64,000 bases of DNA, from positions 16,584,645 to 16,648,644 of the forward strand of contig OZ316893.1 in the NCBI GenBank assembly GCA_973895155.1, read 5' to 3'. The translations under genes were made by a program, and so were the position numbers. The stretch comes from Marsupella aquatica. Its lineage: Eukaryota > Plantae > Marchantiophyta. Positions 29,256 to 56,737 of the stretch are shown here, piece by piece (the first letter of the stretch is position 1; each line of letters begins with the position of its first letter). The notes under the pieces were generated by a model. The model had not been told where the DNA came from, searched no databases, and saw nothing but the letters and a program-made list of their open reading frames with translations.

Positions 29256-29266
29256 AGGACATCACA

Positions 29267-30116
29267 ACAAAAGCAACACTTATGGTGAGGACCCGCAATG
29301 CTGAACATGTGCGGCTTGCACACAAGGCAGAGATGTTGCACCTTGAGTATGTCAGACTTGGGATCCTTTCAGCCCAATTTGCATGGTACTTCGAGTACCT
29401 TGTTGTTTCCAGGAACAACTACAGCCAGCCTCTACCTGCTTCAGTACCCTTCCCGACATCCTTGGTATTTGTGTCTCTTGTACATGACCCGCCAAAAATT
29501 AGGTGCCAAGGGTGTGTGCACAGTTGCCAATATGACTGTCTTGCCTGTAGGGCTTTTGGCCCAGAGTTGGATGACCATTCTCTTGGATGTCGATATTTGC
29601 ACAGAGCACAATGTATCATCTGGAACCACTCGCCATCCTGTAGTGTGCCTGGTGATGTCACTTAGTTGTCCTGCCCTCCCAGACCCCACCATCGGTGCGA
29701 TTGGTGTCTACACATGTTTGGATCACACGCTCTAGAGGACCACTTATCACACCGCATGCATAGACCAGAGACCATTGATCTATAACTTAACACTCTGACT
29801 TCAACACAGAGGATATTTACTTAAAATTTGATGTATGAGCAATTTTGGGTCCAGGGTTTAGGGTCAACAGTACATAACTTATCCTATTATGGCTGCACTA
29901 AGTAGAATATCCTAATTTAAGAGGTTAGCAAGCTCACTTAAAAGTCTATATTCAAATACTGCTTTCATGACTACTTTAACTTGGTGAACATTGCAACGTT
30001 CAATGAATTAATGGGCCATGTGATAACCTGCAAAATTTGATTTATGCCTAACTCATTTGTCTCAGCCACTATCATAGCCTATTTAGGATGTATAAATTAC
30101 AACACTTATCACACTG
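29267..30116. repeat. Segment homologous to 39974-40777 (CACTA-internal sequence)
   Basis: Direct alignment visible over ~0.8 kb; this copy is cut by element B after cacactg. Confidence 0.9.
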
Positions 30117-33100
30117 TGTGACATGGGTTATGTGTCACTTAATCGAGTGTAGGTCCTAGATTAGGACTTATACGGTCATTAGGACCGTAGCCGTAGCGTA
30201 GAGTAGTAGGAATAGCCGTCTTTGCCATTATGAGTAGATTAGGAGTAGGTTAGTTGACTAAATGATTATGAATTAAGGGAAGGAAATTATTACGATTGGC
30301 CGAGGTACCATGGCGGCGGCGGAGTAAAATTCCGTTAGGAGATCACGCTTGGACCGAGACACTCAACTTTGGGCCATTATCAACGACCAAAACGGCCTCA
30401 CCTTCTCACGCTCGGGCTCACCCTAGCACCTCCATAAGAGCTGAGTTGATGGCACCGCAGCCCATTTGCTCATTCATACCTTTTAGAATTCGCGGACACT
30501 GCCATTCACTCTTGCCTTTTGCTCGAATCGAGCTAACTTTTACGAGGAAATTATCGAAGGGTAAGAGCGGATTGTGGTGGGATTTAGTCAGGGCGAGTAA
30601 GGCCTCCACTAGCAAGCAAAACTGCCGGGCGGGGGCACAAACTCAACAAACCAGACTACAAAGGTTAGTATGACCCTTACAGCCTTGGGATTTTGGACCT
30701 TGTTTAGCGAGGTAGGTGCTAAGTTCTCTGAGACTTACCGGTGCTCTTGCCCCGAGAAAGCCGCTTACAAACAAAGATACGCGAAGTTGGTGGCCAAGGT
30801 AGCATAGGTTAATTGTGAGAAGACAGCCATCACCAGGGATTCGACCTACAACAAGCTGCGGGACTACATCACCAAGCTATATCTCAGCAAGGAGGGGCTT
30901 AGATCGGTAGCAGAGGCGATTCTTGAAGTCCCCGCAAAGTTCTTTAGGCTGAAGGGCAACCAGAGGCTGACTCAAGCAGAGTTTGACAAGATCCCGGGTT
31001 ACATCGACCAGCAGATTGCAGTTGAAAAGTGCCAAGAAGACATCAACAGACAACAGGAAGCGGCGCGTAATCTTACGTTCCTCGGGGAAAGCTCTAACGC
31101 CTTCAACTGGGATATGGCTACCCCGACGCCACCCCCAGCCCCTCAGCCAATGACCATCGGCGTACCACCAAACCGGTCCCAAGTCCGTCCCGTGAACAAC
31201 ACCGAGTGTTCCTCGAGTTCCGCGCATGTTAGTCCGCAACTTGAGCAACGTTGTCAGAAGCGGGCAAGGATGACGCCGGCCCCCAAACTGACGGTGCAAA
31301 CCAACGCTGCCCCTGTACCTGCCCCGGCCAACCCGCCAACTAACCACTCTTGACGATCCTCGGATAATCAATAGCCCAACTTATTACAGGTAATCCGCAT
31401 CCTCGAGGTAGTCTGGACAGCGATCAAGAAACTCGACCACGCGGATTATCTCAAGGAGCATCAGTTGGAGCAAGTTGCTCACTTGCAATGGAGACCTAAC
31501 GCAGCCGGGCCAAGGGAGATTTATGAGTTCATCTCCAATTTTGACATCGATGCGGCAACCACCAAGGTTTCAAGGCAGACCTTATCACTTACGGAGTATC
31601 GGTTGGCACAGATCTTTTGTCTGCCAACCGGGCCGGTGTCAGTTGAACTCCAAATTTGGGATAAGGTGTATACACCCCGACACTTCAAACCCGAGGGTAA
31701 GACAGACAACGGGTACAAGCAGGGGTCATGCACCAACTTAGTCTGTATGGAGCAGCTTAACTTCATATGGACTACCCTACACATAATTGAGCCACGGTCC
31801 AAGATCTCCCTCTGTACGATCGTACAGGTGGAATAGTACAAATGGCAGAACTAGGCCCAACTCTTTTGCCGTAGGTTCTCGGAGGAGCTTAGGCGGGCTC
31901 AAGGAGGTATGTCTATCGGGGAAAGGACCTACCTAGGAAGTCACATTGCCATCATCCTCGCCTAGTACAAGGCACGGCGGGAGGCCAAGGGAAAGAATAT
32001 GGCCACCTCAGCCCCGACTAGCATCGCCCCCGCTACGAAGGAGGCTACCCCAAGCAAGCGGACCACTACGCCTTGGGAAAACCCCGAGCCCATGGCCCTA
32101 ACTAATACTCCGCCACCTCCTCCCATTGAAATCCCTCCGCCCCCTTCCGTTGAGCCTCCGCTGCCCCCAGTACAACCACCCCCAATCCCTCCACCACCTG
32201 AAGAAACCTTCCTCTCCCCATTGTAGACTACGGAGGAGCTTGCCACCCCGCCCGAGGAACCACCGGTGCCCGAGAGGATGGAGGACTACCAAGTAGCCCC
32301 GGGGAGCCTACGACCTGGTCCAGAAGTTTAGCCAAACTATGTGAGGGGAGCTAGCGACGTACATTGGGCAAGAGGTCTCGGCGTACTTCCAACCAACCTT
32401 CTTCATGTTAGAGCACCAACCACGGATCGTAAGCCGCTTGGAGGAAGAACTCATCACAAAGGGGAACAAGATCAGGGCCTCCAAATGCTAGTAGAACACC
32501 TCGAAGAGGAGGCTACCACCCGCCGTGAAGAGTTAGTCCGCACCGTTGAACAATGGGAAGGACTCAACCAGGAGTTGAGCGTGGCGTAAGCAGATCTCAA
32601 GAAGTTGGATGACACTGTGCTTCAGTTGCGCTCAGAATCCTTGGCTCGGGTTACCAGCCTGACCGACCTCAACAACCAATTCCTGCAGGCAGCTCAGCAG
32701 GTGGCTAGTCTCTCCGCCGAGCGAGATAAATTGTTGGCGTAGAACCAGATCCATCGTGACTCCATTGGCCAGCTCAGCCTAGAGGTAGCACGGCTCTAGA
32801 CCGAGGCCGATGAAGCTACAAACAAGGCAGAGGAGGCGGTACGGGATAACAAGGCCTTGCAGGACCGCATTACCCTGCTCGTAAGCCAACGGGCAAGACT
32901 TGGACCCACTTCTGATCAAGGCGGCTCAAGGTCTTGCCCCGACAAGGGGACAAACCCTGGTCCGACCACAACACACACATAAGGGGTGGTTAGCAGAGGG
33001 TGTGAGCAAGCATCGCGAGAGGCAGTTGAGTCAACAACATCTTTTTGATTAAGCTTAACGATAGAATAGCTGTCATTAGGCGCCGATTAGCGGCGCAATA

Positions 33101-33978
33101 GAAAGAATCAGGACAGGATCAGTTAGGATCAGCCGATGTAGGATAGAGTCCATCAACAGACTAGAATTTTGGTCAGTATACTTAGCCATTGCCACCCCGG
33201 TCAGCGCCCCTTGCCACTGACGGTCAACCGGTCAGAAGAAGTGCGGCCGGTTAGTCAGAAGGTAGTTAGTCAGTAGGCATTACCCCAGGAGGTAGTATCT
33301 TCCGGCTCCTTTTTGCAAACATAGTATTTAGGCTTCCCCTTCCGCTGTGGGAGGGGGAGAAGACTTAGTTCACCTTAGCGCTAGAAAAGGTGAGGCACGG
33401 GGAGTCCCGGCCTGAGCAAGGTCAAAGTGCACTAAGGAGTGAGAGCCAGAGTTGAGCTTGTTGGGCAAGCACGGGGCAGGGCCTTGTAGAGACTGGGCAT
33501 TGACTGCCGTTAGGCCTGCTGACCCCTTAGAAGTTGAGTCAACTATGTAAACCGATTCGTCGTTGAGTAAAATGTAGTCTTTTCCCTTTGATTCTATCGC
33601 GAGTAACTGGTGTTGTGTGCATGCTTTGTCTGGGCAAAGGCGCCATTTGAAGTGACGTACCGGGTGCGGACCAATGGTAGGGATTGCCTCGGGTTGCATG
33701 TCACAAGGTTCTAAGTTGCGTCAATGGCTTGAAAGCCCCAAGTAGGGAGTGAGTCCGAGTCACTTACTGTGGGAATACTCAAGTGGTGGAAAACAAATAT
33801 ACCTATATGACCCGTACGAGTTACGTAAGTATTATACTAGCAAGTATATCAACTTAGCCCGGCTTAGGGCTAATCGGGACCACTACACACCTTCTTGCCC
33901 AAACCCTCACCCCTACTGGTGGTCGTGGTTACCCCAGGGAACTAACTTGGCTTTAAGGCCCGGGTTATGGGCGCGACA
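30117..33978 (+). repeat. 5' LTR of element B (~3.86 kb) containing a decayed ORF
   Basis: 30117-30660 and 32943-33862 both match the 3' LTR. The end at ..gcgcgaca 33978 is inferred from the CA dinucleotide and the downstream PBS. Confidence 0.85.
30669..32982 (+). pseudogene. Decayed LTR-embedded ORF of element B (same domain type, Pro-rich linker, coiled coil)
   Basis: Fragments QLEQVAHLQW, EIYEFISNFD, LAQIFCLP, NGYKQGSC, a PPPP stretch, then heptads; many TAG/TAA stops. Boundaries approximate. Confidence 0.6.
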
Positions 33979-33994
33979 TACGGTGACCAGTTTT

Positions 33995-34012
33995 TGGCGC
34001 TAGATGGAGGGG
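33995..34012 (+). promoter_or_regulatory. Primer binding site of element B (tRNA-Asn type)
   Basis: TGGCGCTAGATGGAGGGG, one mismatch to TGGCGCTAGAAGGAGGGG, the complement of the plant tRNA-Asn 3' end. Confidence 0.75.
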
Positions 34013-34091
34013 GCACTCATTTTGCCTTACAAGTGGAGCCGTGTAGTGAGCTATTAACCTTTGATTTTGTCCTTAACGCATAGGAAGGGGC

Positions 34092-35785
34092 ATGCCCCTT
34101 ACCCGCTCGCGATCTGCGTATTTACAACACCCGAACGGAGCATCAAGTTTGGAAGGAAATACTGCATCTGGTGGAGCGGGGAGCTCAGCTTCCCAAACGG
34201 GATCGCTTATTGTGATGGGAACCCAAGCACCAGCTACGGGAGGACCTCCACTGGTTCCGCGAGCCCCGCAGGTACCAGGTGCGTTGCAGCCCCCTGCGGC
34301 TCAGAATGTGTCATAGCGATCTTGGTTCCACTATCAACCCTTCAAGGGACGACCCATGCACGACCCCGATGAATGGCTAGTTGAGTTCGAGGCCACAGCC
34401 AAGGCAAATGGCAAGGAAGCCATTAAGCTAACCATTCTTCCAAACGTGCTACGGGGAGAAGCGCGGCCGTGGTTTAACTTGCAACCCCCCGGCTTCACGT
34501 GGGGCCAGTTCCAGACGGCATTTTTGCAAGAGTTTAGGCCCGTGAGGATCAAATCCCGGGCTTTGTAAAAAATTGGATGGATGCAGATGGGTAAGCATGA
34601 CTCATTTTGCAAATTCCTGCAGCAATTCCAGAAGGTTGCCGCCAAGATTTGGCCTAAGCCCAATGACTCTCTGTTGAGAAAATGGTTTGTCAACGCGCTA
34701 CCCCAAAAGATGGTGTTCTCAGTGCTAGAAAAAAAGACCATGGATTACCCTACAACAGGCAATCAATAGTGCAAAATCCTTTAGGGAATCGCACTACGCC
34801 TCTCAGCTTAATCAGAGGACCAAGCATAAGAAGAGCAGGAGGTATCATACCTTCAGCGATTCCGACTTTGAGTATGACAAAAAGAAAAGGAAGAAAAGAC
34901 GGCGGCATAAGAAGAAGGGGTGGTCAAGCTCTTCGTCAGACTCTGATTCAGAGTCTAGCAATTCCCTATCCAGTAGCCCGACGTTGACTGGCTCATCCTC
35001 CAGCGACATTGAGTCAGATTATCGTAACCGCCAAAGGAAGAAGGGATCACGGTCAGATACGTGTAAACATAAACCGTGATCGAAGGTCGTCACCATAGAC
35101 CCAAAGGCCATGGAGGTAGAGAAGCTGAACGAAATCATAGACCGGCTAAAAGCACTATCCGTGCATTTGGCGGAGAAACCACCAGACAAGAAGAAACCAT
35201 TGGAAACCCGAGCGCATGCTTGGTGCTCCAAGGGTTATCAGTTTGGACACATGGTGCAGGAGTGCCCAAGATGGAACATTCGTGTACACCAGATAGAGTT
35301 GGAGCCCGGACAGTCCGAGCCAGAGGGAAGCACAATGGAGTACTTCTTCAAGGATCCGGCCAAGGCGGTGTTCCAGATGAGTATGACGGGACCTCGCACG
35401 CTAAATGGCCACAGTCTAGGTTTCCATACCCCGTATCCATATCCAGCAAATGGGCGTGGCCCCCAGGTGGTTAGCAATCCAAGTATTCCACCTAGACTTG
35501 GAGTTTGGCGGACCCCGGTTTGCTATAATTGTGAAAAACCTGGTCACTTTGCCCGAGAATGCACGGAGCAACGAAAACAAGGGGATGGGAGAGCAATTCC
35601 GTTATGCCAGGTCTGTCGGACCAAAGCACATTCCATGGCAAACTGCCCCTTGGTGTTAGCCGCAAAGGCCGGAGCCATCCGAGCTACTCTACCTGCGGCC
35701 CCATCGACTACAGATGCGGTAGTACAGATGGGAATGATGGAATGGCAGGACGACGCCATCGAGTGGATCAATCTAATAGAAGTAG
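34092..35785 (+). pseudogene. gag: gag of element B (5' part, frameshifts/stops)
   Basis: DPDEWLVEFEATAKANG, CYNCEKPGHFAREC, CQVCRTKAHSMANC; homologous to gag of A; cut by the CACTA. Confidence 0.9.
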
Positions 35786-38310
35786 CACTAGTAGAAACCG
35801 GGGTAATTTAGACCATACCTTATAGGACTAAGCCCACTAAGTCCTTCTTCCATACTTTAAATGACTTGCACCCATTGCCAAGGTTTTGTTAAAGACTATA
35901 AAAGACTTTGAGTGTTTTCCGGTTTAGTTAAAGACTATGAAAAGTAACCTTGCTACTTTGTGAAGGGTGAACACTCTAGGACATCATGGGTTTTGTTCTT
36001 GGAATCACTCTAAAGGTCCACACAAAGACTAGTTTAATACAAAGTCTTACAAGGGTTCATGATAAGAGTATACTTAAGAAGGACCGGGCGACATGCTACT
36101 TTTGGGTCTAAGTGCTTAAGGACATGCCTTCTATATATCACCAACCTTAACTAACATTGCATCGTAAATATCCATGTAACGGGTACTTTTCATAACTTAG
36201 GGTACAATTGTACTAGAGGACTTAGGGTGGTTTCTAACCGGAATCGGAACTAATGCATCACTATAACCCTAGCTAGGTACAACTCCCACACCATGATATA
36301 TTCCGCATTGCCAACTAGTGTTGTTTTGACAGGGTCATGGGCACTAATTGACACAATGAACAGTCCACAACTTGATTGATTTGAGTGTAAATGATGGTGC
36401 CTTTTGATCCAAGATTAATTCCACAAGGGGGGGGGGAGGGTTAGGGGGGCCCACAACTAATTAAGTGGCCATGACTTTGTCACCAAAGGGATTTATTTAA
36501 AGTTATCCTTAACCCTCTTTAGTTTTGTGTGTTGCCTAACACTCTGGCACAAACGTACTTATTATGCTCAACGGGTCACCTCAACGGAAACGAGCTTACA
36601 TGACTGCTTGCACTAAGTATTGGGTTAGGGTGAGTGTGCTTTGGTCATCAGGTGATTATTGGGTTTTTGTGAAGGGAACTATCGAGTACTTGCGCCCCTG
36701 TGTTCGGGCCCCATTGTGCGACAGAACATTGTGCTTTGCTTCTATGAGTGGAGCATACGAGTAGGGTTTAGGGTTAACATTTTGCGAGGGAAGCTGGGAG
36801 GCGATTGTAGTCAATTGTTGCCATCCACTCCTGCAAGCGCTTTTGACAGTTCTACCTGCATGCCCCTTACAATTGTTTGGACAAAGGAGTTCAGCAAGTG
36901 GTTTGCGCTGGTTTGGGACCTTGACAGTCGTGAGGTGGTAAGGACATTGAGGCATCCCTGAGAAGCGCTTGATGGTAAGGACATTGAGGTGTTGGAGACA
37001 TTGAGGCGTTGCGGACATTGCCTTAGAGGCTCTTGAGGCCAGTGACAGCTTTTGGTGCGAAGGCAAGCGGAGATTTGTCTCCTGCCTGAGAGCTGACAGC
37101 TTCGGATTGAGACAACGTGGGCGCACCAAGATTCAGAGAAGACTGACTGGCTGGGACCGACCGGTCTTGGGAAGTTGCAGCCGTGGAGGGACCGGGAGCG
37201 CTAAGGTACATTGCAGCTACGAGCAGCAATGCACTTGCCATAGTGACATTGAACTGCCCTGAATCACCCTGGTTAGTCCAAACTTCCATTTGCAAGTTAG
37301 TTTTGGTAGTGGCTTTGGTTTTCTAGGCGGAATGAGCTCCGATGCCATGCATTAAGAATGTGGGAAATGCTATTTGTAGCTTGCTACCTCATAGTGCTAA
37401 TTTCAACTTCAGGTTTGCGTGGTTTTGGGCGATAAGCTTGTGGCTCATTCGGACTGAGTGACCTTCCTGCGGGCCCTGCCCTAAGTGTTCACACTTCTCG
37501 CCGTCCCAAACTGCGAAAGGCTTCTCCCCGTTCTGTATCCCTGCTTCAGTAATTGTATTGAGGTCTTTCAATCAGTCTCATAGGGGAGGTCATTGTCTTC
37601 TCTGTAAGTTGTTGCTCCTATCGCACTACCAAGCTTGTTGAAGGGAGCTACTATCGCGAGCTGCTACCATTGCGAGCTACTACCATCGCAAGTTGTTGAG
37701 GAGAGGGCCAGTTGTTTGCGAAAGGATTTCCAGATTGTGTCGGAGGTCCAGATTTCTTGCCTGTGGGTCCCCATGTTTGCAGTTTTTTCCTGGCTTCTTG
37801 CGCAGTGCTCCGACGTAGTACCCATGATGCTAGTCTGAACGGATTCATGAGCTGTGACTGATTTGCTGTTCAAATGATGTCTTCAACTAGAGCTACAATT
37901 AGTGTCTGCGGAGCTGCCAACCAGGTGCAGGTGTGATTGAGGTCAGTTCAACTGTTGGGTTGCCCGAATGTTCCGTTGCCATCATTTGTAACCACGAGCA
38001 ATGGACTTTAGAGGCGGGATTTTCTAGGGATTTCTGCTCAACCCTTTGCTGGCTTTCTACTTTGAGGTCTATTTTGGGGTTCGGGCAAAGGGCGGAGGGC
38101 GAAGATCAAGCATTGCAGTTTTGCTAACGCTGCATGGTGGAAATTGGACCAGCCAACTCCTTGTCTACGGTGTTGTGGAGCTGGGCGAGCTGCGACAAGG
38201 GACCAAGCCAGGCGACCTGTAAATCAAAGCCCATTGACCGCTGCTGAAGGTTTGATGTTCTATATTTGAAGCTCTCGTTTGCTTTCTATTTGTCAGTCTT
38301 TCACAGCTGC

Positions 38311-38447
38311 GCATTAGTGTTGGCCCTATCCTCCGTCCCTCTGCTAGCCTGCTACTGACATTTGGTTAATCATAGTTGTTCACTACTGTGCATTAGTGTT
38401 GGCCCTATCCTTCGTCCCTCTGCTAGCCTGCTACATTTGGTTAATCA
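38311..38447. repeat. Tandem duplication of ~60 bp
   Basis: gcattagtgttggccctatcct(c/t)cgtccctctgctagcctgcta at 38311 and 38390. Confidence 0.85.
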
Positions 38448-39973
38448 AAATGCAATGTCTGTCTGAGTGAGCTGATCATCTCCAATGTAGTATGGGCTTG
38501 GGATTTACATATATGTTTCCTGCTTCCAGCAGATAGGCAATTGCTTCCAAGCTCTTTGGTGCAGACGTCTCTATGGAATGCAATGCCCTATATGCCAGAG
38601 CTTTCATATATTGGCATGTTCACATTTGCTCTTGGAATATATGATCCCGAAAGCTTCATGAGCAGTTTATGTTCAGAATTCTGTTTATGTTATTGTTTCC
38701 GTCAATTGCAGCTTGGATTTTTGAATATATGTCCTGTCATTGATGATAGAGGGTGGTTGAGATTGGTTTTCGTTCTTCTTGGTAGTGGGTCAGTGTGTTG
38801 GCATTTTCCTCATGTCACTCATTCTCATCGGACGAGCTGCGGATTGGTACTGAATAGTCATTTAGCCTATTGCTGCCTCCCACCGCCATTGCCGATTGCC
38901 GCTATCATCGTGTATTGCTTGCTTGCTTGCCACTGCCTTTGTTGGTTGCCACCCTCTTCACACTCTCTCGCATCTATCTTCCGATATGAACGCGCAGCCA
39001 AGCCCACCAAAAGCTCTGTCCCTACAATCCCTCCCAAATCAACTTCCTTGTTTCCTGCTGCTCATGATCACCGCATTGTTCTTCCCTATTTTTGTTTACT
39101 TATTGGTCTCTCCACACTTGTTGCTTCACATGACTATTTTGCTCCTCCCTGGATCCGAACATGCCTTGTGCCCAATGCTCCCACGGTGGAGTGGGGTGGT
39201 GAATAGACGACCTCAACACCATTGCAATCACATTTGGATGGGTTAGTTTTTTGTAGCTTAAACCTGTCGGGATTTTGCGCTTGTGGCGACGCTATCCTTT
39301 CTGCCACTTCATGAGTTTGTTTATGCTGCAGTGGGCGGTCTTGCGCAACTCAATGAGCCAATTTCATTTTCCCTGTGCACTTCTATTTCTCAGAGAATTC
39401 CCTGGTCATGCTCATTTGCCCCAGAGTTAGAAAACAAAGAAGAAGAAGAGCTGACTAATTGTAATTCCAATCCATATCCTGATCGGTCAAGGATTGTGAA
39501 CTACATTGGCCTTGTCATTGGCCGAGGTCACCAAATTTTGCTTGGTTTCATTCCTGTGGAGCACTGTTGTGATGGATGAATAGTTGTCGTAGCATTCTGC
39601 AAACTCTCACGGTTTGCTTATGGCCATTATTTGCAATTTGCTGCTACTAATATGTCTCCGACTGAGCAGCATACACCGGAAGTAAGCAATAGTGGAGGTT
39701 TAACTGCACATCAACACATCCAGTGAACTACCTCTCTGCTGCTCACTAGAGGGTGAGACTTTCACTCTTTCTGGATATTGTAGTTTGTAAGCAAGTTGAT
39801 TAGGAGTGTTTCATGCTATGTTTACATTGTGACCCCTAGCTGGAACCAATGGAATGACACAGTGAGTGGGAACTGATAATTTAAGGTTGGTTGCTGTTGG
39901 TGAGGCAAGTACAGCTCCTGCTCACCTTGCTGATCGAAGGTGCTTATCAGAGGACGTGAACACACGACACTCC

Positions 39974-40777
39974 ACAAAAGCAACACTTATGGTGAGGACC
40001 CGCAATGCTGAACATGTGCGGCTTGCACGCAAGGCAGAGATGTTGCGCCTTGAGTATGTCAGACTTGGGATCCTTCCAGCCCAGTCTGCATGGTACTTTG
40101 AGTACCCAGTTGTTGCCAGGAATAACTACAGCCGCCTTGTACCTGCTTCTCCACCCTTCCCAACATCCTTGGTATTTTTGTCTCTCGTACATGACCCGCC
40201 ACAAATTAGGGCCCAAGGGTGTGTGCACAGTTGCCAGTATGACTGTCCTGCCTGTAGGGCTTCTGGCCTAGAGTTGGATGACCGTTCTCTTGGATGTCGG
40301 TTTTTTCACAGAGCACAATGTATCATCTGGAACCACTCGCCATCCTGCAGTGTGCCTGGCGATGTCACTTGTCCTGCCCTCCCAGACCCCACCACCGGTC
40401 ACTTTGGTGTCTACACATGTTTGGATCACACGCTGTAGAAGACCACTTGTCACACCGCATGCACAGACCAGAGACCATTGACCTATAACTTAACACTTTG
40501 ACTTGAACAGAGAGGATACTTACTTAAGATTTTGAATTATGAGCAATTTTGGGTCCAGGGTTTACGGTCAACAGTACATAACTTATCCTATTATGGCTGC
40601 ACTAAGTACAATATCCTAATTTAAGAGGCTAGCAAGCTCACTTAAAAGTCTCCTTTCAAAGACTGGAATTAATGGGCCATGTGATAACCTGGAAAAAGTG
40701 ATTTATGCCTAACTTATTTGTCTCATTCACTATCATAGCCTATTTAGGATGTATAAATTACAACCCTGATCACACTG
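39974..40777. repeat. Segment homologous to 29267-30116; contains a decayed Cys-rich reading frame
   Basis: Direct alignment with the other copy; the minus-strand frame has one TAG (40268) where the other copy has TGG. Confidence 0.85.
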
Positions 40778-41107
40778 CTTGATACCAATCCTGTTCAAAA
40801 AATGCCTGTTTTACATGTCACGACTGTTATATGTGATTCAAATGCATTAAATCTTGTTGCAGATCTCCTTTGGTGAATCATAGCCACAAAATTGAGGTGT
40901 AGGTGGAGCTATTGTACGAGGGGATCAGTTTTTAGTGTGGGCTCAATAAACCAAAAAGTATGTCTACTCTGCACATGTGTATGAACATTTCATTGCAGTA
41001 GCAATTGCCACTCTAGTCTATATGCTACATTGTACTTTTTGTACACTGCACTAAATTGTATTGTCTGTGCACTCTACTAAATTGTACTATCTGTCTCAAG
41101 CGTAGGC

Positions 41108-41788
41108 ATGGCACGCCCTAAAATCCGAGCCAAGAAGCGGGGGACAGAGGTGAGCAACACAGGTGTAGTTGGGCCAGATGGTAGTAACTTCTCCGCAAGT
41201 CAGATTTTCCAGAAGGCAGCTCATTGTTGTGCCATTTGTGACGATGGTGGTGGCTTAGCCATATGTGAGGGCCCTTGCATGAGGCATTTCCACCTCAACC
41301 CGGAGTCTGACCTTGCTGCAGAAAACAACTGTCCAGGGGTGGGCCTCCCGTCAGCACACCAGGGAGGCTGGATGTGCACTGATTGTTTGGAGAAGCAGGC
41401 TAAGTGTGCACAGTGTGGGAAGTTGGGGTCTTATGAGGGCTCTGTTGATGCTCCACCACTTGTTAGGAAATGCCCTGACAGATATTGTGTGAGGTTCTTT
41501 TGTTTTTCATGTTTGCCCGATCTTGCCACAGCTTGCCCACTTCATAAGTGCAAGGCATGTGGTCAGCACGATGAAGATTTCTGGGTGGACATAGTCCACT
41601 ATGTTAGGTGTCCCACCATGTGGCACTTTCATTGTTTGAAGGAGCGTCAAGCAGAAGGCTATGCTTGTGACAGACACATCTATCATCACTCTGCACATGG
41701 TGTTGATCGATGGATCTTCTATTGTCATCGCCATGCCATAGATCCTACTTTGCACACTCCCATGAGAGATCACATTTCTTGGCTTTGA
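41108..41788 (+). CDS. Stand-alone EDM2-like composite PHD-finger protein (226 aa)
   Basis: CAICDDGGGLAICEGPCMRHFH, CxxC..CAQCGKLGS, CPLHKCKAC, RCPTMWHFHCL and FYCHRHAIDPTLHTPMRDHI parallel the EDM2 PHD block as I recall it (CAICDNGG..CEGSCLRSFH, CPLHKC, IYCQEHEID...TPVRDH). N-terminal basic NLS. Confidence 0.85.
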   Translation: MARPKIRAKKRGTEVSNTGVVGPDGSNFSASQIFQKAAHCCAICDDGGGLAICEGPCMRHFHLNPESDLAAENNCPGVGLPSAHQGGWMCTDCLEKQAKCAQCGKLGSYEGSVDAPPLVRKCPDRYCVRFFCFSCLPDLATACPLHKCKACGQHDEDFWVDIVHYVRCPTMWHFHCLKERQAEGYACDRHIYHHSAHGVDRWIFYCHRHAIDPTLHTPMRDHISWL

Positions 41789-42386
41789 ACCTGAATAATG
41801 TACATGCATAGTGCACCTGATGTGGATACCTTGGAGATTGCAGACATTCCAATTTTGAGAAGAAGGACCTCTGTAGGAGAGGATGCTTAGGCAACAAGTA
41901 CCCTAAGTTCATTACTTGTTCCTGGGTACATGCCTTCAAAAACTCCCCTTAAGCCTTCTAGGAACTTTTTTAACTCTGCAATCATTTTGATCACGACTTA
42001 CATGACACTGCTTAAATTAAATCAGGACTTCTCATTATGAGCATATAAGTTACAAGGCTATTTAATTTGCGAGAATTCCCTTAAAGTGTACCAACATTTT
42101 CTATTCTCATTGAATGTCTGCCCATTTACAACATCTGTATGTGGCATCACAAAACAATTGCACTTGTCACCTTCAATATTGTCAAGGCACATATTCAAAC
42201 TATGAGGTGCATGCTTGCAGGTGTCTAGTACGTTTGTCCCAATATTTCTCCCGTTTGGAATCGGAGCAGAGACTCACCAGACGACTGGACTGGACCAAGT
42301 TATAAACGCAGCATTTTAAGGGCCCTCCGATTATCAGGTGAACGCATTATCTTCCGGTCTGCAGTGATTAGGTGGCCCGTGTGTAC

Positions 42387-43235
42387 ATGGCCTCTAGGAA
42401 ACGTACAAAGGTTGACCACCCGCCTCTGTTGGCTGGAATCAAAGCCATTTTGATTCCTGGCCACTATGGGTTCACCCAAGTGAGTTGGCCAATCGTACAA
42501 AAACGATTCTCAGAGTTCCATGGGACTGAAGTCAAGGACATCACTCCACAGACTACACATGTTGTTGCGGGGACATGGCTGGATGTGATGAACAACTGGT
42601 CATGGTCCTTCATTGATTCTGCCATTACCAACCAAGGTCTAAAAGTAGTTGAAGTCTCTTGGCTGACCGATTCTGTTAAACATAGGTGTGTACAGAGTAC
42701 TGAGCAATATGAGTTGTGGGAGAGTGAGGAGGCCACTGCAGAGGCTTTGGCTGAAAAGGAAGCCTATGAAGCAGCGGCAGAGAAACCCAACTTTGCTTCT
42801 GTCCAATATGGACCTGTTGTCAACATAGGACACCATCCTATGCGTGCAGATGCTATATTGAATGAGCATGGCAAGGAGAGAAATACCATTATGAAGGGGT
42901 TCAGTGTGGTATTTGCAGAAGAAGGAATTGGGGAGACTAAGTGCAGATTGTACAAGTCTATAGTTGTTGAGCTAGGTGGGACAGTGGAGGAGAGTCTAAC
43001 AGAAACCTCCACTCATGTTGTAGGTCTGTCATACATGAAAATATGCAGAAAATTCTTTAAGACAACAGTGCGTGATTTTGTCATGAACAACAATCTTTGG
43101 GTGCTTTCCCCTGATTGGCTTCTGGAATCAGCAGCTAGAGGGAAGCGACAGAATGCTTGGGACTTTGATATTTTTGAGGCCTGGCCCTCCAAGATTCAGC
43201 GGAGATGTATGCTTAGCAAAGGTGGGAGAGAGTGA
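42387..43235 (+). CDS. Tandem BRCT-domain protein (282 aa from first ATG)
   Basis: Two repeats: TTHVVAG..VVEVSWLTDSV and LGGTVEESL..STHVVG..VLSPDWLLES; N-terminal RKRTK NLS. Confidence 0.85.
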   Translation: MASRKRTKVDHPPLLAGIKAILIPGHYGFTQVSWPIVQKRFSEFHGTEVKDITPQTTHVVAGTWLDVMNNWSWSFIDSAITNQGLKVVEVSWLTDSVKHRCVQSTEQYELWESEEATAEALAEKEAYEAAAEKPNFASVQYGPVVNIGHHPMRADAILNEHGKERNTIMKGFSVVFAEEGIGETKCRLYKSIVVELGGTVEESLTETSTHVVGLSYMKICRKFFKTTVRDFVMNNNLWVLSPDWLLESAARGKRQNAWDFDIFEAWPSKIQRRCMLSKGGRE

Positions 43236-43375
43236 GGAGTAGGAGTCCCTCATATTTTTGTATAAATCACAATTTTGTAATAAATGTGATCCTTGAACTA
43301 ACTCATCTTGTCATGGTTGGTCGCAGTTGAAGTGATTGTTGTTTCCTGCTGCGTGGGGTGTGACTGTGAATCTAC

Positions 43376-43945
43376 TTGCTGGGCTCTGTTTGGCTGAAGA
43401 CTTTGGTGGGTATGCTGCCTCTTCCAGACCGTCAGGCCCTATGTAGGGTCCTCCTACGGGTTGCATCGTGCATGGCTACTGCTTGGGCTTACTTGTGTGG
43501 ATTGGTAACCAGACAGAGTGTAGCTCCATCCGAGATAATGCCTGCAGACCTTGGATGTGTTGTGAATGCTGTGGTGAATGAGGATGCACAGTCGGAAGAG
43601 GATATTTACTTTTCAGCAGATGAGTTAGACAAGCACGATGCTGTAGGTGGTTCCTTGTTGCCTGATTTGGCAGATGATATAGTTCTTGCACATGTCTGGC
43701 CGAGGGTTCTTGTGGTGTCTGGCGCACAAGATATCTGCAAATATAGACTAATTAGTACCCAGTGGAGGGACTTGGTAGCAACATGTGCACCATGGAGGGC
43801 ACTGCTGCCACTGCTTGTAGGCACGGATCGAAGACCACCATGGCATGAGCAGGGTTTAGACCTTGATGACTTAATGTACATGCCTGAGTACCTCAGGGCT
43901 GAGTGGCATCGACAACAGGATTGGTATCCGTATTTGATGTGGTAG
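43376..43945 (+). CDS. Small F-box-like protein (start codon uncertain)
   Basis: SLLPDLADDIVLAHVWPRV..CKYRLISTQWRDLV resembles the plant F-box consensus LxPxLPDD..RxVSxxWRxL; no kelch or LRR domain follows. Confidence 0.6.
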   Translation: MLGSVWLKTLVGMLPLPDRQALCRVLLRVASCMATAWAYLCGLVTRQSVAPSEIMPADLGCVVNAVVNEDAQSEEDIYFSADELDKHDAVGGSLLPDLADDIVLAHVWPRVLVVSGAQDICKYRLISTQWRDLVATCAPWRALLPLLVGTDRRPPWHEQGLDLDDLMYMPEYLRAEWHRQQDWYPYLMW

Positions 43946-44278
43946 TAAGATGAGGACATCTCACACCGGTCTCGCACCTGGCACCTGTGTCTATGACTAT
44001 ACATGATTGGACTCTGATATGGTCATGGATGTACGTGCAGAGGCAGTACATGTGAGGACAGCGGAGGAGTTGACACCCTCAAACATTTAGGAATTTTGTC
44101 TCATTCACTTGAGAATAGGTACATGACTCAGGCACCTATATTTTTTGTTTTTTTGTTTTTTTGGAACGTTACGTATTTTGGCAAGTACAGTCGGGGGTGA
44201 AATCCTTAACAGGAAGTGTATTTTTCACTTGCATAATAAAATGACAGGGTGCTGAGTGCTGAGTGCGTGTGTATAGTG

Positions 44279-47200
44279 ATGGCTCCAAGGTTGCCTCTTC
44301 ACAACCCATTTAGGATTAGGCATCATGATTCTAAATTGTGGATGCGTGAACAAGCCCGGGCCGCCCAAGGTAGGAGTAGGAGGATGAGATGCCCATGCAC
44401 ACAGTGCCAAGGATTCAAGTCATTGAGTTTGAACACTGTGCACCTTCACCTGCTGCGGCATGAAAGGCACCCTCGGTGGAGGGTTTGGAATGTACCAGCA
44501 GAAGAAGACTCCTCTGATGAAGAGTGGAGAGCTGACTTTGTGGATTCTAATACAGCTAGGCGTAGAGACTATGTAGAGCAGGACATAGACTGTGCAGAGG
44601 ATGGTCCTGGGGTCCAACATGAGAACGTGGATGACCAAGATGGAGATGGAGAGGCAGTCACTGAGGACGGTGGGATGGATGTCCCAAGAATGGTTCAAGA
44701 GATTTTTGAAGACCTTGATGCTTTTTACGACACAGTGGAATCAGAAGAGGACAATGAACCACAGCCACACATTGGCGACGGACAAGCTGAACCTGACTTT
44801 GACATTGGGGAAGGTGCAGCAGAGAGGGAGTGGGTGTTTGGGGGCCCAAAACACATCAAAGAAGCTTGCATTCCTATCTACGAGGGGTCGAACTGCTCCA
44901 AGCTGGGTTTTGTCGTGTTGTTGTTGAACATCTGTGGCAATCACAATGTTCCCAATATATTTGTGACAGAGTTGTTGACCTTCCTGCGCCGAAATGTGTT
45001 ACCAGATGGTAATTCAATTCCAAAAAATATGTACGAGGCTAGGAAATTGATGTCTAACCTTGGGCTGAACTATGTGTCTATTGACGCATGCCCTGATGGG
45101 TGTGTTCTCTTTCGCAAAGAGCATGCAGATAAATTGACATGCCCTCATTGTGGTAAGCACAGGTACAAGAATGTAGGGAAATGTACACACCCTGCCAAGG
45201 TTCTTCGTCATTTTCCTCTCATTCCTAGACTACAACGTCTGTTTAGATGCCCTGCCATTTCCAAGCTGATGACATGGACTCCTGATAACAAGAGCAGTGA
45301 TGGCCTGCAGCGTCACATTGGAGATTCCAACCATTGGAAATTTGTTGATGAGAGGTGGCCACAGTTTGCTGCAGAGAAGCGGAACTTTAGATTTGGTCTA
45401 TCACTGGATGGAGTAAACCCATTTGGAGACAAAAACAACCGTTATTCATGTTGGCCGGTTACGCTGCTAAATTACAACCTTCCCCCATGGATGACTACAA
45501 AGAGGTTTTTTGTCATGATGGTGCTGTTAATCCCTGGACCAGCTTCTGTGACCGAGCAATTCATAGATATCATGTTGGCTCCAGCAGTGGAAGAGTGGAA
45601 GACTTTGTGGATAGAAGGGGTGTTAACCCATGATGTTCTGAAGGGGCTTCTTCGACCCAGCCCCTTTAGACTGCATGCAATTTGTTTGCTGGATATAGCA
45701 GATTACCCAGGCCATGGCATCATATCTGGACGAGTGACAAAGGGCTATGTGGGGTGCACACCATGTGGGAAAAATGTGACAAGTGAGTGGTCGCATGCCC
45801 TGCACAGTATGAAATTTCAGGGGCATAGAAGGTATCTGCCTGTTGATCATCCTTACAGGCACACACGGTCTCAAATTGCACACTTCAACAACAAAACAGA
45901 GCTTCGTGGCCCACCACAGAGGGTCACCAGAGAGCAAGTCCTGAGGTGGGCAGCCAGGAAGGCTGATTGGGACAAGAGAAGTGCCACTGATCGAGAACCT
46001 GAGGATCCAGTGGTGAAACACGGTGTGAAAAGACAGACCTTGATGGACTTGGAGTTGGAGTACTGGAGGGTAATGTACTTAGCCTCCAGCCCCTGTATGA
46101 TTGCAATTTTAGATTGGAGCAATGGTGGATTGATGTTGGTTACAATCCTCCTATGTGGTTAATTAGTGTTTCTGTTGTTGAATTCTTTGCTTTGTGGAGT
46201 GCAGGAATTCGAGCCCAGCAAACACAATGTGGACGTCATGCACATTGAGAAAAATATTTGTGAGAGCTTGCTGAAGTTCTTGTCGGGTGAGAAAGATACA
46301 GGAGCAGTTCGAGCTGATATGCAACAGAAGGGGATTCGCCCTCACCTTTGGTTGAAGCCCCATGCAAGCAATCCCAATGTACTTCTCAAGTTCCAAGCTC
46401 CCTATGTGTGCACACAGGATGAATGGAAGACATTCTTGTATAGATTGAGCTGTCTGAAAGTGCCCTCTGGCTATGCTGGTGCCTTCAAGAAGCATATTAC
46501 AAAGAATAAACTTGGCAGTATGAAAACACATGACTACCATGTGTTGATGCAGCACATTCTGCCCCTATGCCTCAGAGGTCTCATGCAGAAACCAGTCCGT
46601 AATGTCATTCTTCGACTGTGCAATGTATTTCGCCGTATATGTGTGAAAGTGTGGGATCCCCAAGGATTGGAGCAGTTGAAGCAGGATGCTGCTTATGTCC
46701 TCTGTGACTTGGAGATATACTTCCCCCCTGCTTTCTTTGATGTTATGACTCATCTCCTAATCCATGTGGTAGAAGAGCTAGGGCAGTATGGGCCAGTCAG
46801 TACCAGATGGATGTACCCTATGGAGCGATACATGAAGTTGTTGAAAGGTCATGTGAGAACATACTACAGGCCAGAGGCTTCCATGGCATTGGGGTACATT
46901 AAGGATGAGACGTTGGGATTCCTAACAGAGTACATGGCTGGGTCTGGTGAAGCTATGACAAGAGTTTGGAAATCTGGTGAAGATGATGGAGTGAGTGGCG
47001 AGGTTGTTGAAGGTGTGGGACGTGCTGTTCAGCTGCCTGTTGCGATTCGAGACAAGGCTCATTCATATGTGCTGGCAAACACAGAGCCTATGCAACCATG
47101 GTGGAGGTGAGTGATTGAATTGACTTGCCTTTGTTGTGATGCTTCTTGTCTGTTCCAAGGGTGATCTTAGGTTGTCATGTGTTGTTTAGACTAACTATGC

Positions 47201-47978
47201 CTGTACCTCATATTGCAGGGAATATGATATGCAAAAAGCTGCACACTCTGGGCAGCAGGATCCCTTCCCACAGTTCGAGCAGTGGATTCGGGTGACAATT
47301 CGAGAGCATAGTAGACATCACCCAGATATGGAGAAGGATTTGTATCTTCTATCTGTGCCACCACGATTGTCTATTCTGACCTACAAACGGATGAGAGCTT
47401 ATGGAAATCATTATCGAGTGAGGGATGAGCAGGGTGACCATTGTGTATCATATGATTGTGGTTTGATTTCTGTGTTTGAGCAGAGAACCTCTGAAGAACA
47501 GAGGGGGTGGATGAAGATGGGTTACGTGGGGGAGTTGACCGACATTTGGGTGTTGAATTATGGTAACACAAGTGTCCCAGTGATATTGATGAAGGGATCA
47601 TGGGTGAAATCAGAGTGGCAGAGACCAAGGGCCACCATGAAGCGTGATCATGATGGGTTCTTGTTGGCCAATTTTAGGTCCAGAGTACCAGAATGGTCTG
47701 AGCCTTTTGTTTTCCCTAGCCAAGTTGAACAGGCTTTCTTTGCAGATGTGGAGGAGTCACATGGCTGGAGGGTGGTATGCCATAGCCAAGCACGGAACAG
47801 GCGGATGGATGGAAGTAAAGTAGAGTTCAGTTTGGATGACCATGCTGCATTCGAGCATCCTAGTCATGAGACTGTACTTCCAACTCGGGCAGGGACTGAC
47901 TACATCCCCTTAACATTGAGAGAGACATATGATGAACCTGGGCAAATGGAATATGATGAGGTTGATGATTTGCAATAG
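44279..47978 (+). CDS. tnpD: CACTA transposase TnpD/Tnp2, 3 exons (44279-46069, 46205-47106, 47219-47978), ~1150 aa, open
   Basis: RCPCTQC associated domain, IDACPDGC, LSLDGVNPF, NYNLPPW, DVMHIEKN, KTHDYH, WMYPMERYM, EPFVFPSQVEQAFF. Both GT-AG introns join the exons in frame. Confidence 0.93.
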
Positions 47979-48150
47979 GCAACAGCTGGCGATTGGCAAG
48001 TATGAGGTTGAGGATGACTACCTGCACAGAGTCACAGAACGGGAATTGTTGCCTGGAATGATGTTTAGGATAGTTGGATATGCATGAAATTGATTGATAC
48101 TTTGAATTTAGTGTGCTGATTTTCCCTGTTTGGTTGTGGGTGCTGTGCAG

Positions 48151-51100
48151 AAGCTATGGGGGAAGAGGGTGATGACATGGAGACAGACATGGGGCTTGGA
48201 GAGTGGGGTGAAGAGGAAAGATTGGATATGGATGGAGACCCAGATGCAGGGGGCTCACAGAAAAATGCACCTGTGCAAGATGCACAGGGCCCTCATCAAG
48301 TCCCAGGTAGGTGGGCAGCTAGAGAGAAATCACATAATCCATACCCTAGAAGGAGCCAGAGTTATTGGCAAGGGACGCCTGATAATTATGATGATGACTA
48401 TGATGGAGCAGAAGATGGATGGGATGAATATGAACACCCAGAGCGTGGTAGAGACGGGTACAGAGGGCAATGGAAAGGTGAGGAGGATGATTGGACAAGT
48501 AAGTGCCTTGTGCTAGTGATTTTGTGATGGTAGTAGAGATTTAGCTCAATATGCACTTATCTGATGTGTAGCTAGGGCAAAGAGTTTATCTTACAGGTCC
48601 ATGAGTGTGGCATGTACCTGTTGGTATGCAGACTCTGATTGGGACAATCACGAAAACAACAAAGGCCATCCACGTTCAGATAGGAGGCAATCATTCACAG
48701 GCGGGAGAAACGCCCCTAATTCATCAAGACAAAGCAATAGGACAGGTGGTCCAGAACCATCTATGCGCCAAGGGAGAGGTAACTTGGTCATTGCAGAATT
48801 GCTCTGAAGTCCATTGTATATTTGGCAGCGGGATTTATGATTCATACTTACCTAATGTAAGTGACTGTAAATGGATCCTGTAAATGTGCAGGGACTCCAG
48901 GGAGGTTTGGACAATGCAATCCAGGCCGTGGGGGGAGATCAGGCCGTGGAGGGACCCCAGGCCGTGGGGGGACACCAGGCCGTGGAGGGACACCTAGTAG
49001 CGCTTCAGGGAGTACCAAGGCAGGAGACAGTAACAAATTTGGTAAAGTAGAAGTGAATTTCGAAGGTTGGATAACTCCCACATGTGATGGTAAGAACCGT
49101 TGGCATTCTGACCTAAGAGGAGAAGTATTGCGTTGGTTAGATTTGAGCATTACAGAGTTTAGGAGTCAGAACAAAGCTGATTGGGCTGCTATCTGCAAGG
49201 ACATTCTTGAACGGTGGGAGTATGTTGGTAATGATGGTAAGGGCCCAGTTGAAGATTGCATATCAGATTATGCAATGAGGATTTTGAAACAAGAGAGGCA
49301 TAGGTTGAAAAGGATGTGGATAGACAATGGTTCTAACAGGAGAATGCCACCACCCCCATCATTGGAACTGGATCAATGGACACGGTTAATCAAAGGGTTC
49401 ATGTCGGAGGCTGGACAGAGCAAGAGTGAACTGATGTCAAATGCTCGAGGCAAAGTGAAACACCTTTCACAGGCTGGGAGAGGAAGTTATGCTCCAGTGA
49501 AAGAACAATTGGTAAGGCAGTGACATGCCTGATAGTAAGCCTCAAACTTATCATCTTGCTACCATTATTACATTTTCATTGACAATCAACACTTGGTTTC
49601 ATTCATATGTATGTTGATGTGGACTGCAGAAGAAATTGACAGGTGAAGAACCATCAGCACAAGAAGTGAGAGAGGAGTTCATGAAACAAAGGAGTGAGGT
49701 GACAAGTGTAACTTCCAAACAGGTGATTATGTTGTAATTCTGTATGTTCTGTGACTATTTGGCCTTGAGCATCAGAAAGAAATGTAGTAGGAAGTAAGCA
49801 ACCAGTTCTTGGGGACAGTTATCTGAGATATGTAAGCTGTGTTATGACAGGGAACTGTTACAACTCTCACAGAGATGTGTGAACGGTTGAAGTCATTAGA
49901 GTGTGGACTCCCTCAAGTGGAAAGTAAATTGGCTGATCGTTTGGATATTGTGGAGGCATCTGTAGCGAACCTTCTTGCATCAGTGGAATCTAATTTCAAG
50001 CTTGTGATTGAAAAATTGGGTGGTTCCCAACCAAACAATGAGGGCAACATTGTACAAAGTGTGCCCTTGTTAACAAAAAAGGGAATTGGCAAATCTGACA
50101 CAGGTATGGAAATGACACCGGCCCATTGTTCATTGTGTCCTATGTTCAAATGTTAGAAGTAAGTTTTCATGAATTGAGTGAATGGTTTGAATGCAGGAAG
50201 AGTGGAGGCAGAGAAGGACCCTGTAATCAGTAAGCAGAAGGGCAAGAAGGTTGCTGAGACAGGTAACCTGCTATGATCTAGTACATTACATTTGAAAAGT
50301 GCATGGAGTTTTGTGAAGCTTAAGCCGGTTGGAGGTAATCTTTTCTGTAAGAACTGGTTGGATGAACTGGGATCTGAAGTGACATCATGATTGATGTATC
50401 AGGTGATTCAAAGAGCAATAATGAAGAAGATGTGCCCAGTGCCTCAGTGACCATAGCCAAGGAGGTATCAGGTAAGCTGATGCTTTAAATTCCTCTATAT
50501 GAATGTTGAGCAACAATTCAGTGGTTAATAGATTCAACGTGAATATTGTGGTGTGTTTATTGATCAACAGAAGCAGACATGGAGCATATGGCAATGGCAA
50601 AGAAGGGGAAGAAGGCTGTTCATAATGGTAAGGAGATAGTGACAACTTTGTGGTTGGTGACATGTACATTTAGCACATGTGATGAGTGATTCACTTATGT
50701 TGGACATGACACTGAATTGTAGTTGATGCAGAGTTGACAGACTCTCAACCAAGTGGGACAAGGGTGAAGCGACGTCGAAACTTGGGTGCAACATTGGATG
50801 CAAGTAAGATTGTAGATGCTTCAATTGAAGCAAGTACAATGTTGGCAGATACTGAGATGATGTCGCAGGGAAATCCTGCTACACAATCAGAAGTGTCAAA
50901 TATGGATGCAGATTCTTTGAAGAAGAGTGTAGCCAATTCTCGATCACCAGCACAAAACACTCGTGCCAAAGTCATGACTCGCAACCAAGGTATGAATAAT
51001 GTCATGTATAAGCCACCCAGGAAAGCCAAGAAAAACAGCCAGGGTAAGGTGGAGGTGATAGCCACAGCAGAGCCAGTCCATAATCTTCTATCATGGGAGG

Positions 51101-51327
51101 ATGACTCGCAGGTATGTGTGGGTACAGGCATTTTGCGACCGGATCATGCAAAATTCCATGGCAAAGTGGTCCCGGATGACCATGTAGTAGTGCTGTTGAC
51201 TACAGTGATTGTATCTGATTGTAATTTGCCATTTCCGAATAGAGACGATGATCCACCTCAGGAAATAATTGCAGATGCAGTAGGATCTCTTGTGCTCTGG
51301 CCATCAGAGTGTGTTAGTCTGCAGTGA
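48151..51327 (+). CDS. tnpA: Multi-exon CACTA TnpA-like gene (exon structure partly inferred)
   Basis: Exon 48892-49511 has the Ptta/En-Spm motif PPP..DQWTRLI..KSELMSNAR..GRGSYA; last exon has FHGKVVPDDHVVV..LPFP..AVGSLVLWP; several short GT-AG-bounded exons between them. Confidence 0.8.
48921..48993 (+). repeat. 18-bp tandem repeat encoding GRGG(T/R)(P/S) x4
   Basis: caggccgtgg(g/a)ggga.. repeated four times within the TnpA exon. Confidence 0.85.
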
Positions 51328-52157
51328 CTGAATGCAAGTGTAGATAGAATCATGTGAATTGTGTCACATTTTGACATTGCCTTGGAAAGATCCAAGAAAT
51401 ATCTGTACCAATTTTTCCATTTGGTAAAGAGGATGAAGGAGCCGTTGTGTGTGACATTGATATTTCTGAATTCTGTATGTATGAAACAATTGATTGATGT
51501 CAAACTATGGCTCTATGGTGATTGTCTATGATACTTGAATCTGTTTTGTATCATTTCAGTATTAGTGTGTATGGTATAGAGGAATACTTTGTGACCTTCT
51601 TTGTAGTCTATGAAGTTTGAATCTGTGAATTCATATTAGTGTACATGGTATAGAAGATGGCTTTCTGAAACTATGTATTCTAATGTTAACATGATGAATG
51701 GTGAACTTATAGAGTGAGTTCATTCAAGTACACAATAAAACATGAATGCAATATGTTATTTGTGCACAAGAGTGGGTTCATTCCAAGTAGTATAGTGGGG
51801 TCTTCATCACTCATATCCAGTTGACATGAAAGACTTATACATACCCCACAAAGTATATTTAAAGACTACCCTCCATAACCTTTTTAGTCGTTCCCAACGA
51901 TTCACCATCTCAGCCCATAAAAGACTGAAAATGACTCACCAAAGCTACCCACACAAAGACTAAAATAGACTGAAAATCCAGTCTATTAAACGACTTATAA
52001 ACCAGTTCTATAAAGGACTCAGTTGATTATAGTAACAAAACATACGACTCGCAGTCCTATAAAGGACTGGAGTCCTTCCCAGTCGTTTCCAAGTCATATA
52101 CGGTACTGAATAGTCGTTTAATGGGGTCTAAATACCCCCCAGTTTCTACTAGTGTAG

Positions 52158-56700: not shown

Positions 56701-56737
56701 TGTTTGCAAGGACGCTTCACACTTGAGTGGGGAGCTA

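Follow-up and report, generated by a model that had tools for sequence, protein, structure and literature searches.

Besides 2.5 atypical PHD repeats, EDM2 has a PGR domain and an ELP domain that resembles methyltransferases; it is described as binding H3K9me2 chromatin and affecting more than 2,000 transposable elements (TEs) (PMC7529245). Why would a transposon carry the PHD block of such a protein as a gene of its own? This question is raised by an open reading frame (ORF) at 41108..41788 (+) in the 64,000-nt stretch of Marsupella aquatica DNA (contig OZ316893.1) analysed here, hereafter the window. The ORF encodes 226 aa and reads from ATG to TGA as a single exon without need for an intron; the surrounding open frame spans 41081-41788 (+), with the ATG at 41108. 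The original prediction of a stand-alone EDM2-type composite PHD finger holds in its main parts. The protein spans the whole EDM2 PHD block and contains both the CPLHKC motif (residues 143-148) and the predicted YCxxHxID...TPxRDH motif, here YCHRHAID...TPMRDH (residues 205-222). Start and stop codon bound the block, the stop lying immediately 3' of the EDM2-type tail, and a basic leader stands in front. The nuclear localization signal (NLS) proposed for this leader coincides with a basic stretch at residues 3-11, which we treat as a candidate guessed from composition. As had been noticed, an expected Cys reads Tyr within HYVRCP: Tyr165 replaces a zinc ligand and aligns with C370 of EDM2.

Residues 41-225 align with residues 225-432 of Arabidopsis EDM2 (P0178, RepID EDM2_ARATH) in BLASTP (61/211 identical positions, 29%; E 1e-23), with no second significant segment between the two proteins. 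The BLASTP match of an NSD-type protein was limited to residues 35-178. A profile of the EDM2 tail, built from the last 32 residues of 115 EDM2-type proteins of at least 400 aa (isoforms and near-copies included), gave 36.4 bits for the ORF, compared with at most 0.6 bits for six of six NSD-type triple-PHD proteins and at most 4.6 bits for 200 shuffled sequences; 10 of 15 stand-alone proteins (see below) reached at least 22 bits. The YCxxH...TPxRDH tail is thus present here and, by this profile, missing from NSD-type PHDs. Because of the BLASTP match to EDM2 and the tail scores relative to NSD-type proteins, we assign the ORF, on sequence grounds, to the EDM2-type modules and not to the generic PHDs, the outcome that would have contradicted the prediction. 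Pfam placed three NSD-type PHD models on it in the same order as in EDM2, all under the curated cut-offs (E 3e-4, 6e-3 and 2e-3), and the best ESM Atlas match was a streptophyte PHD_NSD cluster (0.93). The ligand columns agree with those of A. thaliana EDM2 save two: H316, the PHD2 His ligand, is Cys132 here, a change seen family-wide, and C370 is Tyr165. The ORF is not an EDM2 orthologue, and the features of full EDM2 (ELP methyltransferase-like domain, PGR domain, N-terminal region) are missing from it. An exon of a longer EDM2 gene was rejected as well, since ATG and stop bound the PHD block, homologues have common ends, and no other EDM2 parts were found among 47 frames scanned with Pfam.

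The direct host of the gene is a full-length CACTA (En/Spm) DNA transposon of 16,369 bp at 35786..52154 (+), with 13-bp terminal inverted repeats (TIRs) and a TAG target duplication. One of 12 candidate end pairs combined 13/13 TIR matches with a target-site duplication (TAG/TAG); AAAGACT copies are subterminal at both ends, and contigs of the sequencing runs X1 (four contigs) and X2 (three contigs) skip 35782-52156, which reveals empty sites. The insertion point lies in the gag-like region of a Ty3-type LTR retrotransposon at 30117..58199 (+), which has a zf-CCHC in frame 35080 and reverse transcriptase, RNaseH and integrase at 53965-55529. Its LTR-like repeats (30114-33862 and 56735-58199, the right end being approximate) are 91-93% identical. 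The statement that the PHD copy sits inside a retrotransposon is therefore correct only at one remove, the CACTA element being nested in it; the ORF as retrotransposon cargo was rejected because it lies within the CACTA ends. CpG observed/expected is 0.25-0.37 in the CACTA element versus 0.63-0.79 in two retrotransposon regions.

The window is composed almost wholly of repeats; its element types and the database matches point to a land plant. A young Ty3-type retrotransposon at 6271-21093 (-) has 4.1-kb LTR-like repeats that are 98.7% identical, each with a 623-aa coiled-coil-like ORF (7382-9253 and 18127-19998) of no confident family; it is flanked by ORFs of 440 and 419 aa at 4189-5511 (-) and 21419-22678 (-), with weak coiled-coil-type matches or none. 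In repeat-rich DNA at 23741-24379 (+), with upstream frames from 22884, a Pfam N6_N4_Mtase fragment (PF01555, E 7e-8) was detected, possibly a mobile-element-borne N4-cytosine or N6-adenine DNA methylase gene that is apparently split by introns or stops. Long ORFs of 475, 133 and 136 aa at 60095-62335 (+) and 59040-59858 (-) had no Pfam match; they lie antisense beyond minus-strand integrase-like frames and possibly belong to another LTR element as an additional ORF.

Within the CACTA element, Cys-rich, PHD, BRCT and F-box-like ORFs form a row upstream of TnpD and then TnpA, all on one strand. The Cys/His-rich ORF (39989..40438, +; 149 aa from the first ATG) had no Pfam match at E 0.05 and is possibly further cargo. 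The BRCT ORF (42387..43235, +; 282 aa) contains two BRCT stretches (PF00533, E 5.6e-14) and has one stand-alone homologue, P0192 (294 aa, 61% identical); a PDB sequence search with it gave no match. For the next ORF (43412..43945, +; 177 aa from the first ATG), the possible F-box motif is a lead only: ESM Atlas features matched F-box clusters (0.86-0.90), the best three matches carried no name, and no Pfam match was obtained. The TnpD-type transposase gene (44279..47978, +) matches PF13963, PF02992 (E 1e-59), PF13960 and PF13952 and likely has three exons; 54 GT-AG splice combinations leave the frame open, the longest predicted product being 1173 aa, with several splice-site sets possible. The TnpA-like multi-exon region (approximately 48156..51327, +) was delimited by sequence inspection and matched PF03004 (Transposase_24) weakly (E 0.014), so that the transposase evidence is strong for TnpD (Transposase_21) and weak for TnpA. 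The element differs from a Pack-CACTA, a transposase-less, non-autonomous element with recent and neutral pieces of host genes, in that a transposase is present, an open spliced frame is possible, and the cargo is constrained and 29% identical to A. thaliana EDM2.

Coverage varies along the element. In the left arm (about 36100-39400), X1 contig depth is about one fifth of that of the core, which points to either a segment specific to one subfamily or a nested insertion. At 39100-40900, depth is above the CACTA core in both X1 and X2; therefore, the Cys-rich ORF region is probably common to other element families. At 28006-30116 lies a second, degenerate CACTA-like piece. Its TnpD fragment belongs to a different family (42% identity) and meets, near 29258, a stretch that matches the 39965-40777 region at 87% identity; the copy of the Cys-rich ORF in this stretch (29267-30116) carries frameshifts, and the piece ends at the retrotransposon LTR.

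The window stretch is partly present in 11 of 13 sequencing runs from seven organisms, with at least half of its words in four. Near-identical X1 contigs had depths of 1978 and 1872 over the PHD ORF versus 1912, 1949 and 1817 over TnpD; contig depth does not equal copy number and serves here solely to show that ORF and transposase travel together. This equal depth indicates that the PHD gene moves with the transposase in a repeated CACTA family. A second PHD variant in X1, about 12% divergent, had a depth of 1540-1810. Position 41601, which determines residue 165, is G (Cys) in the sister contigs at full depth in X1 (3586/3586), X2 (34389/34389) and X5 (207/207) and at 38334/42124 (91%) in X3, X7 being without cover at the site. 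Tyr165 is thus nearly private to the window copy. The site is in CHG context, and the change would fit deamination of a methylated cytosine. The early decay suspected from this residue may therefore apply to the window copy, but not to the family: decay across the whole PHD family was rejected, given the Cys of the sister copies and the synonymous excess among copies.

This excess was calculated from the 39 best-supported of about 120 variants, scored singly per base: 17 were synonymous, 22 non-synonymous and none a stop, versus an expected synonymous fraction of 141/678 (21%; p 0.0011). A crude dN/dS among copies is about 0.34, and none of the 39 substitutions removes a conserved zinc ligand. 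Indels at 3% of depth or more were absent from the ORF in four runs, whereas the 18.4-kb stretch had 127 indel rows at a 10% threshold; some minor contigs carry gaps in the ORF. We regard this pattern as selection-like, in a crude sense. Together with the homologues and contig copies, it runs counter to a lack of conservation among copies, which the original prediction had named as a ground for abandoning it.

A word search retrieved five homologues among 117 candidates (81, 75, 53, 40 and 38% identity; 217-245 aa), all five ending in DHISW. Searching 1.84 billion representatives with a profile of six family members gave 536 proteins at E <=0.001; among the best 150, short family members came first, followed by long plant proteins. 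The 20 matches that were checked include EDM2 of Neltuma and Selaginella, an Arabidopsis suecica protein clustering with A. thaliana EDM2, and proteins of Marchantia, Riccia, Calypogeia, Ceratodon and Diphasiastrum. From 147 matches in a metagenome scan, one locus emerged (L001, 1867 bp, 36% identical); a viral contig scan yielded no relative among 255 pattern matches, and of 3363 candidates in a search for longer homologues, just two, both NSD-type proteins of eukaryotes, were retrieved. Over 36-81% identity, the stand-alone family keeps a fixed start, end and ligand pattern, with conservation highest in the PHD1 core (CAICDDGGxLxxCxGxC) and in the EDM2 tail. Several homologues, including P0009, P0013 and P0140, look truncated or frameshifted.

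In a tree of 32 chosen rows (LG+G4 model), all nine stand-alone rows formed one clade (support 100/100) on a stem of 0.91 changes per site, sister to streptophyte EDM2-type rows (87/86). In a 70-row quick tree, 14 stand-alone rows fell on one side of a branch (SH-aLRT 88), with the long-branch P0148 beside them. AU tests rejected a sister grouping with the three-row angiosperm-type EDM2 group (p 0.002) and were borderline for Marchantia/Riccia EDM2 (0.049); groupings with NSD-type (0.22), liverwort EDM2-like (0.47), moss-type (0.15) and all eight EDM2 rows (0.25) were not rejected. The phylogeny suggested in the original prediction thus gives a distinct clade, whose sister, judged from these alignments, may be NSD-type or one of several EDM2-type groups. 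A second EDM2-like clade of liverworts (P0014, P0017 and P0019 from Calypogeia, Riccia and Marchantia; 100/100) comprises proteins of about 700-770 aa with the PHD block near the C-terminus, the sequence beyond being too short for a methyltransferase-like domain. With its p-AU of 0.47, this clade is a possible donor of the transposon PHD gene.

Three features set the stand-alone proteins apart from their long host counterparts. At the His ligand position of PHD2, 14 of 15 stand-alone proteins have Cys, but 111 of 115 hosts have His; the PHD2-PHD3 spacer measures 7 residues in 13 of 15, compared with a host median of 27 (range 10-58, 110 scored); and the net acid excess in the eight residues before the first Cys is <=0 in 12 of 12 scored, but >=2 in 98 of 110 hosts. 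P0148, which has a host-type His and spacer, is excluded from these family counts, and the acid count omits P0059 (pattern matched at the wrong place) as well as L001 and P0097 (no pattern match). Taken together, the sequences characterize the clade as a remodelled family rather than a fresh EDM2 fragment.

With 78 aligned rows, AlphaFold gave a confident model of the PHD protein (pLDDT 88.6, pTM 0.82), the first 19 residues being disordered; since 63 of the 78 rows come from outside the stand-alone family, the model leans on EDM2. A fold from six sequences was poor (pLDDT 40.8). Sequence searches of the PDB led to AIRE PHD1 and, when the family profile was the query, to NSD2/NSD3 (E 3e-12 to 2e-9), but no EDM2 entry was found there by sequence or structure. 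Foldseek gave partial matches only, to PZP domains (E 3.5e-5 to 2.6e-4, TM-query <=0.22) and to NSD PHD5-C5HCH (TM-target about 0.59), both of which are histone-binding domains.

We tentatively propose, with slightly less than even confidence, that the PHD ORF is a selected accessory gene of its CACTA family and encodes a chromatin adaptor, likely with an anti-silencing role. Support comes from its EDM2 identity, its position inside the TIRs, the equal depth, the synonymous excess and the remodelled clade. The predicted protein is likely nuclear and would bind chromatin at element copies, keeping them expressed despite silencing. EDM2 influences both TE silencing and full-length transcription (PMC3632883, PMC7529245, PMC4980392, PMC10241880), favours distal polyadenylation together with ASI1 and AIPP1 (PMC9292364, PMC10241880, PMC4980392), and has a PHD repeat with modification-dependent histone binding, cited as unpublished (PMC3632883). 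Anti-silencing genes on TEs have precedent (PMC13317346, PMC12730594). According to our proposal, the PHD block would have been captured long ago from an EDM2-like gene, and an adaptor would have remained once the catalytic and N-terminal regions were lost. Docked on silenced chromatin, this adaptor may recruit or compete for host EDM2 partners, whereby intron-containing TnpD/TnpA transcripts could be completed. Since nothing but the reader block and its basic leader is kept, the protein can be at most an adaptor or competitor. The window copy, one zinc ligand short, may be impaired, in which case sister copies could supply the protein in trans. Counter-silencing is ranked first because transposons keep genes that aid their spread, TnpD and TnpA contain introns, and the element is CpG-depleted.

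The chief doubt concerns H3K9me2 reading as inherited from EDM2. By analogy with H3K4me0-reading PHDs, the acidic run before PHD1 would contact the histone tail; its absence from the remodelled PHD1 front end suggests that histone specificity may have changed or disappeared. The case for a plain mini-EDM2 that reads H3K9me2 just as EDM2 does is weakened by the missing acidic run and the spacer of 7 instead of 27 residues, and further by the missing N-terminal region and methyltransferase-like domain. The peptide specificity of EDM2 itself has reportedly been defined (Lei 2014; Tsuchiya and Eulgem 2014). In a bolder and rather doubtful extension, an old CACTA lineage would have rebuilt the EDM2 reader, and the whole cassette (PHD, BRCT, F-box-like and Cys-rich ORFs) would read silent chromatin and hijack or block ASI1-AIPP1-EDM2, licensing expression or steering insertion. 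If true, this would amount to histone-mark-guided counter-silencing, in contrast to the DNA-motif-guided VANC.

Other explanations account for part of the data. The PHD of RAG2 steers Transib-derived RAG1, and in a comparable manner the PHD protein could hold the TnpD/TnpA transpososome on marked chromatin, so that insertions would fall preferentially in heterochromatic repeats; most known CACTA elements transpose without such a PHD gene, and we consider this role unlikely. The insertion of the window copy in an LTR retrotransposon would agree with it, but a single site in a window of nearly all repeats carries little information. EnSpm and Transib/RAG1 are reported to have common catalytic motifs (PMC12730594), and the transposon ancestral to RAG has been proposed to have had a Kelch-PHD partner (PMC4411706). 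The product of the adjoining BRCT ORF could, moreover, dock at DNA breaks.

It is likewise improbable that the remodelled fingers have lost histone reading and serve as a scaffold that binds the adjoining BRCT and F-box-like proteins, or binds a silencing factor of the host and helps to target it for degradation. The family-wide loss of acidic run and spacer and the His-to-Cys exchange would be expected in that case, and the one-strand cassette with BRCT and F-box-like ORFs, the BRCT gene being likewise conserved as a stand-alone protein (61%), would provide partners. But it is the PHD1 core and the EDM2 tail that are best kept, the F-box assignment is no more than a lead, and linkage of the three ORFs was seen in the window's CACTA family.

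Partly independent of what the PHD protein does is the question whether the wider stand-alone clade represents a small family of host genes in non-seed plants, one member of which was recently taken up by the CACTA family. Transposon context was seen for the window's own CACTA family; among homologues, context was examined at L001 alone, where no transposon gene lies near the PHD copy within the 1867 bp available. This would agree with a host gene, an origin that we nevertheless consider quite improbable: unlike EDM2 proteins, the nine source-checked homologues and their cluster members come from raw assemblies only (Logan, JGI, ENA) and are absent from annotated gene sets, which fits repeat-masked sequence, and many are broken. 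Finally, a neutral passenger, i.e. an EDM2 piece captured in the known Pack-CACTA manner (PMC13317346), amplified with the element and now decaying, would explain Tyr165 and the broken-looking homologues but is very unlikely in view of the synonymous excess, the lack of common indels or stops, the start, end and ligand pattern fixed across the family, the absence of introns, and the long common stem with its specific remodelling.

Returning to the accessory-gene interpretation, we consider the PHD ORF a real, conserved cargo gene that is apparently undescribed; the full-text literature searched, which covers few subscription journals or Repbase reports, did not yield any description of a CACTA element carrying an EDM2-type PHD gene. 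Known anti-silencing by TEs relies on the DNA-motif-directed VANC in plants and on demethylating enzymes in fungi, and a transposon with a histone reader would add a third route. Counter-defence by the transposon would then connect straight to the EDM2 pathway. Our PDB searches yielded no solved structure of the EDM2 PHD block, of which the protein offers a small natural form, and the three family-wide changes are ready-made probes of EDM2 mark reading.

With Arabidopsis EDM2 and the EDM2/EDM2-like proteins of land plants, the transposon protein shares the colinear whole PHD block, the aligned zinc ligands and the C-terminal tail. It differs in length (226 aa versus about 700-1600 aa), in lacking the N-terminal region (with a DNMT1-RFD match in many hosts), PGR and ELP, in its PHD2 Cys, short spacer and lost acidic run, and in being encoded by a single exon inside a transposon. 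The three-finger order is common to PHD1-3 of NSD2/NSD3 and to protist NSD-type triple PHDs, in keeping with the described similarity of EDM2 and NSD proteins (PMC3776765), but these lack the EDM2 tail (<=0.6 bits, six of six), and the transposon protein lacks their SET domain.

As to function, the closest parallels are genes that transposons carry in addition to their transposases. VANC and KIU of VANDAL Mutator-like elements are such extra ORFs, KIU holding a captured host domain (Ulp1); both act for related copies, and VANC recognises DNA motifs and causes hypomethylation (PMC13317346). VANDAL elements belong to another superfamily than CACTA, and the likeness we see is functional and inferred, with no claim to sequence similarity. 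HarbingerS is said to be a DNA transposon with a SET domain. Fungal EnSpm elements encoding TET/JBP are again DNA transposons with a chromatin-related extra gene (PMC12730594). The TET/JBP and HarbingerS genes specify enzymes, whereas the PHD protein stems from plants and is a reader-type module without catalytic function; by analogy, it may help its transposon as VANC/KIU or TET/JBP do. A tie between a PHD and a DDE transposase is also found in RAG2/RAG2L, whose Kelch-PHD proteins accompany Transib-derived RAG1, and in Rehavkus (PMC4411706, PMC6446971); there, the PHD is single and forms part of a propeller protein or of the transposase itself, whereas the CACTA element of the window encodes a separate EDM2-type multi-finger block.
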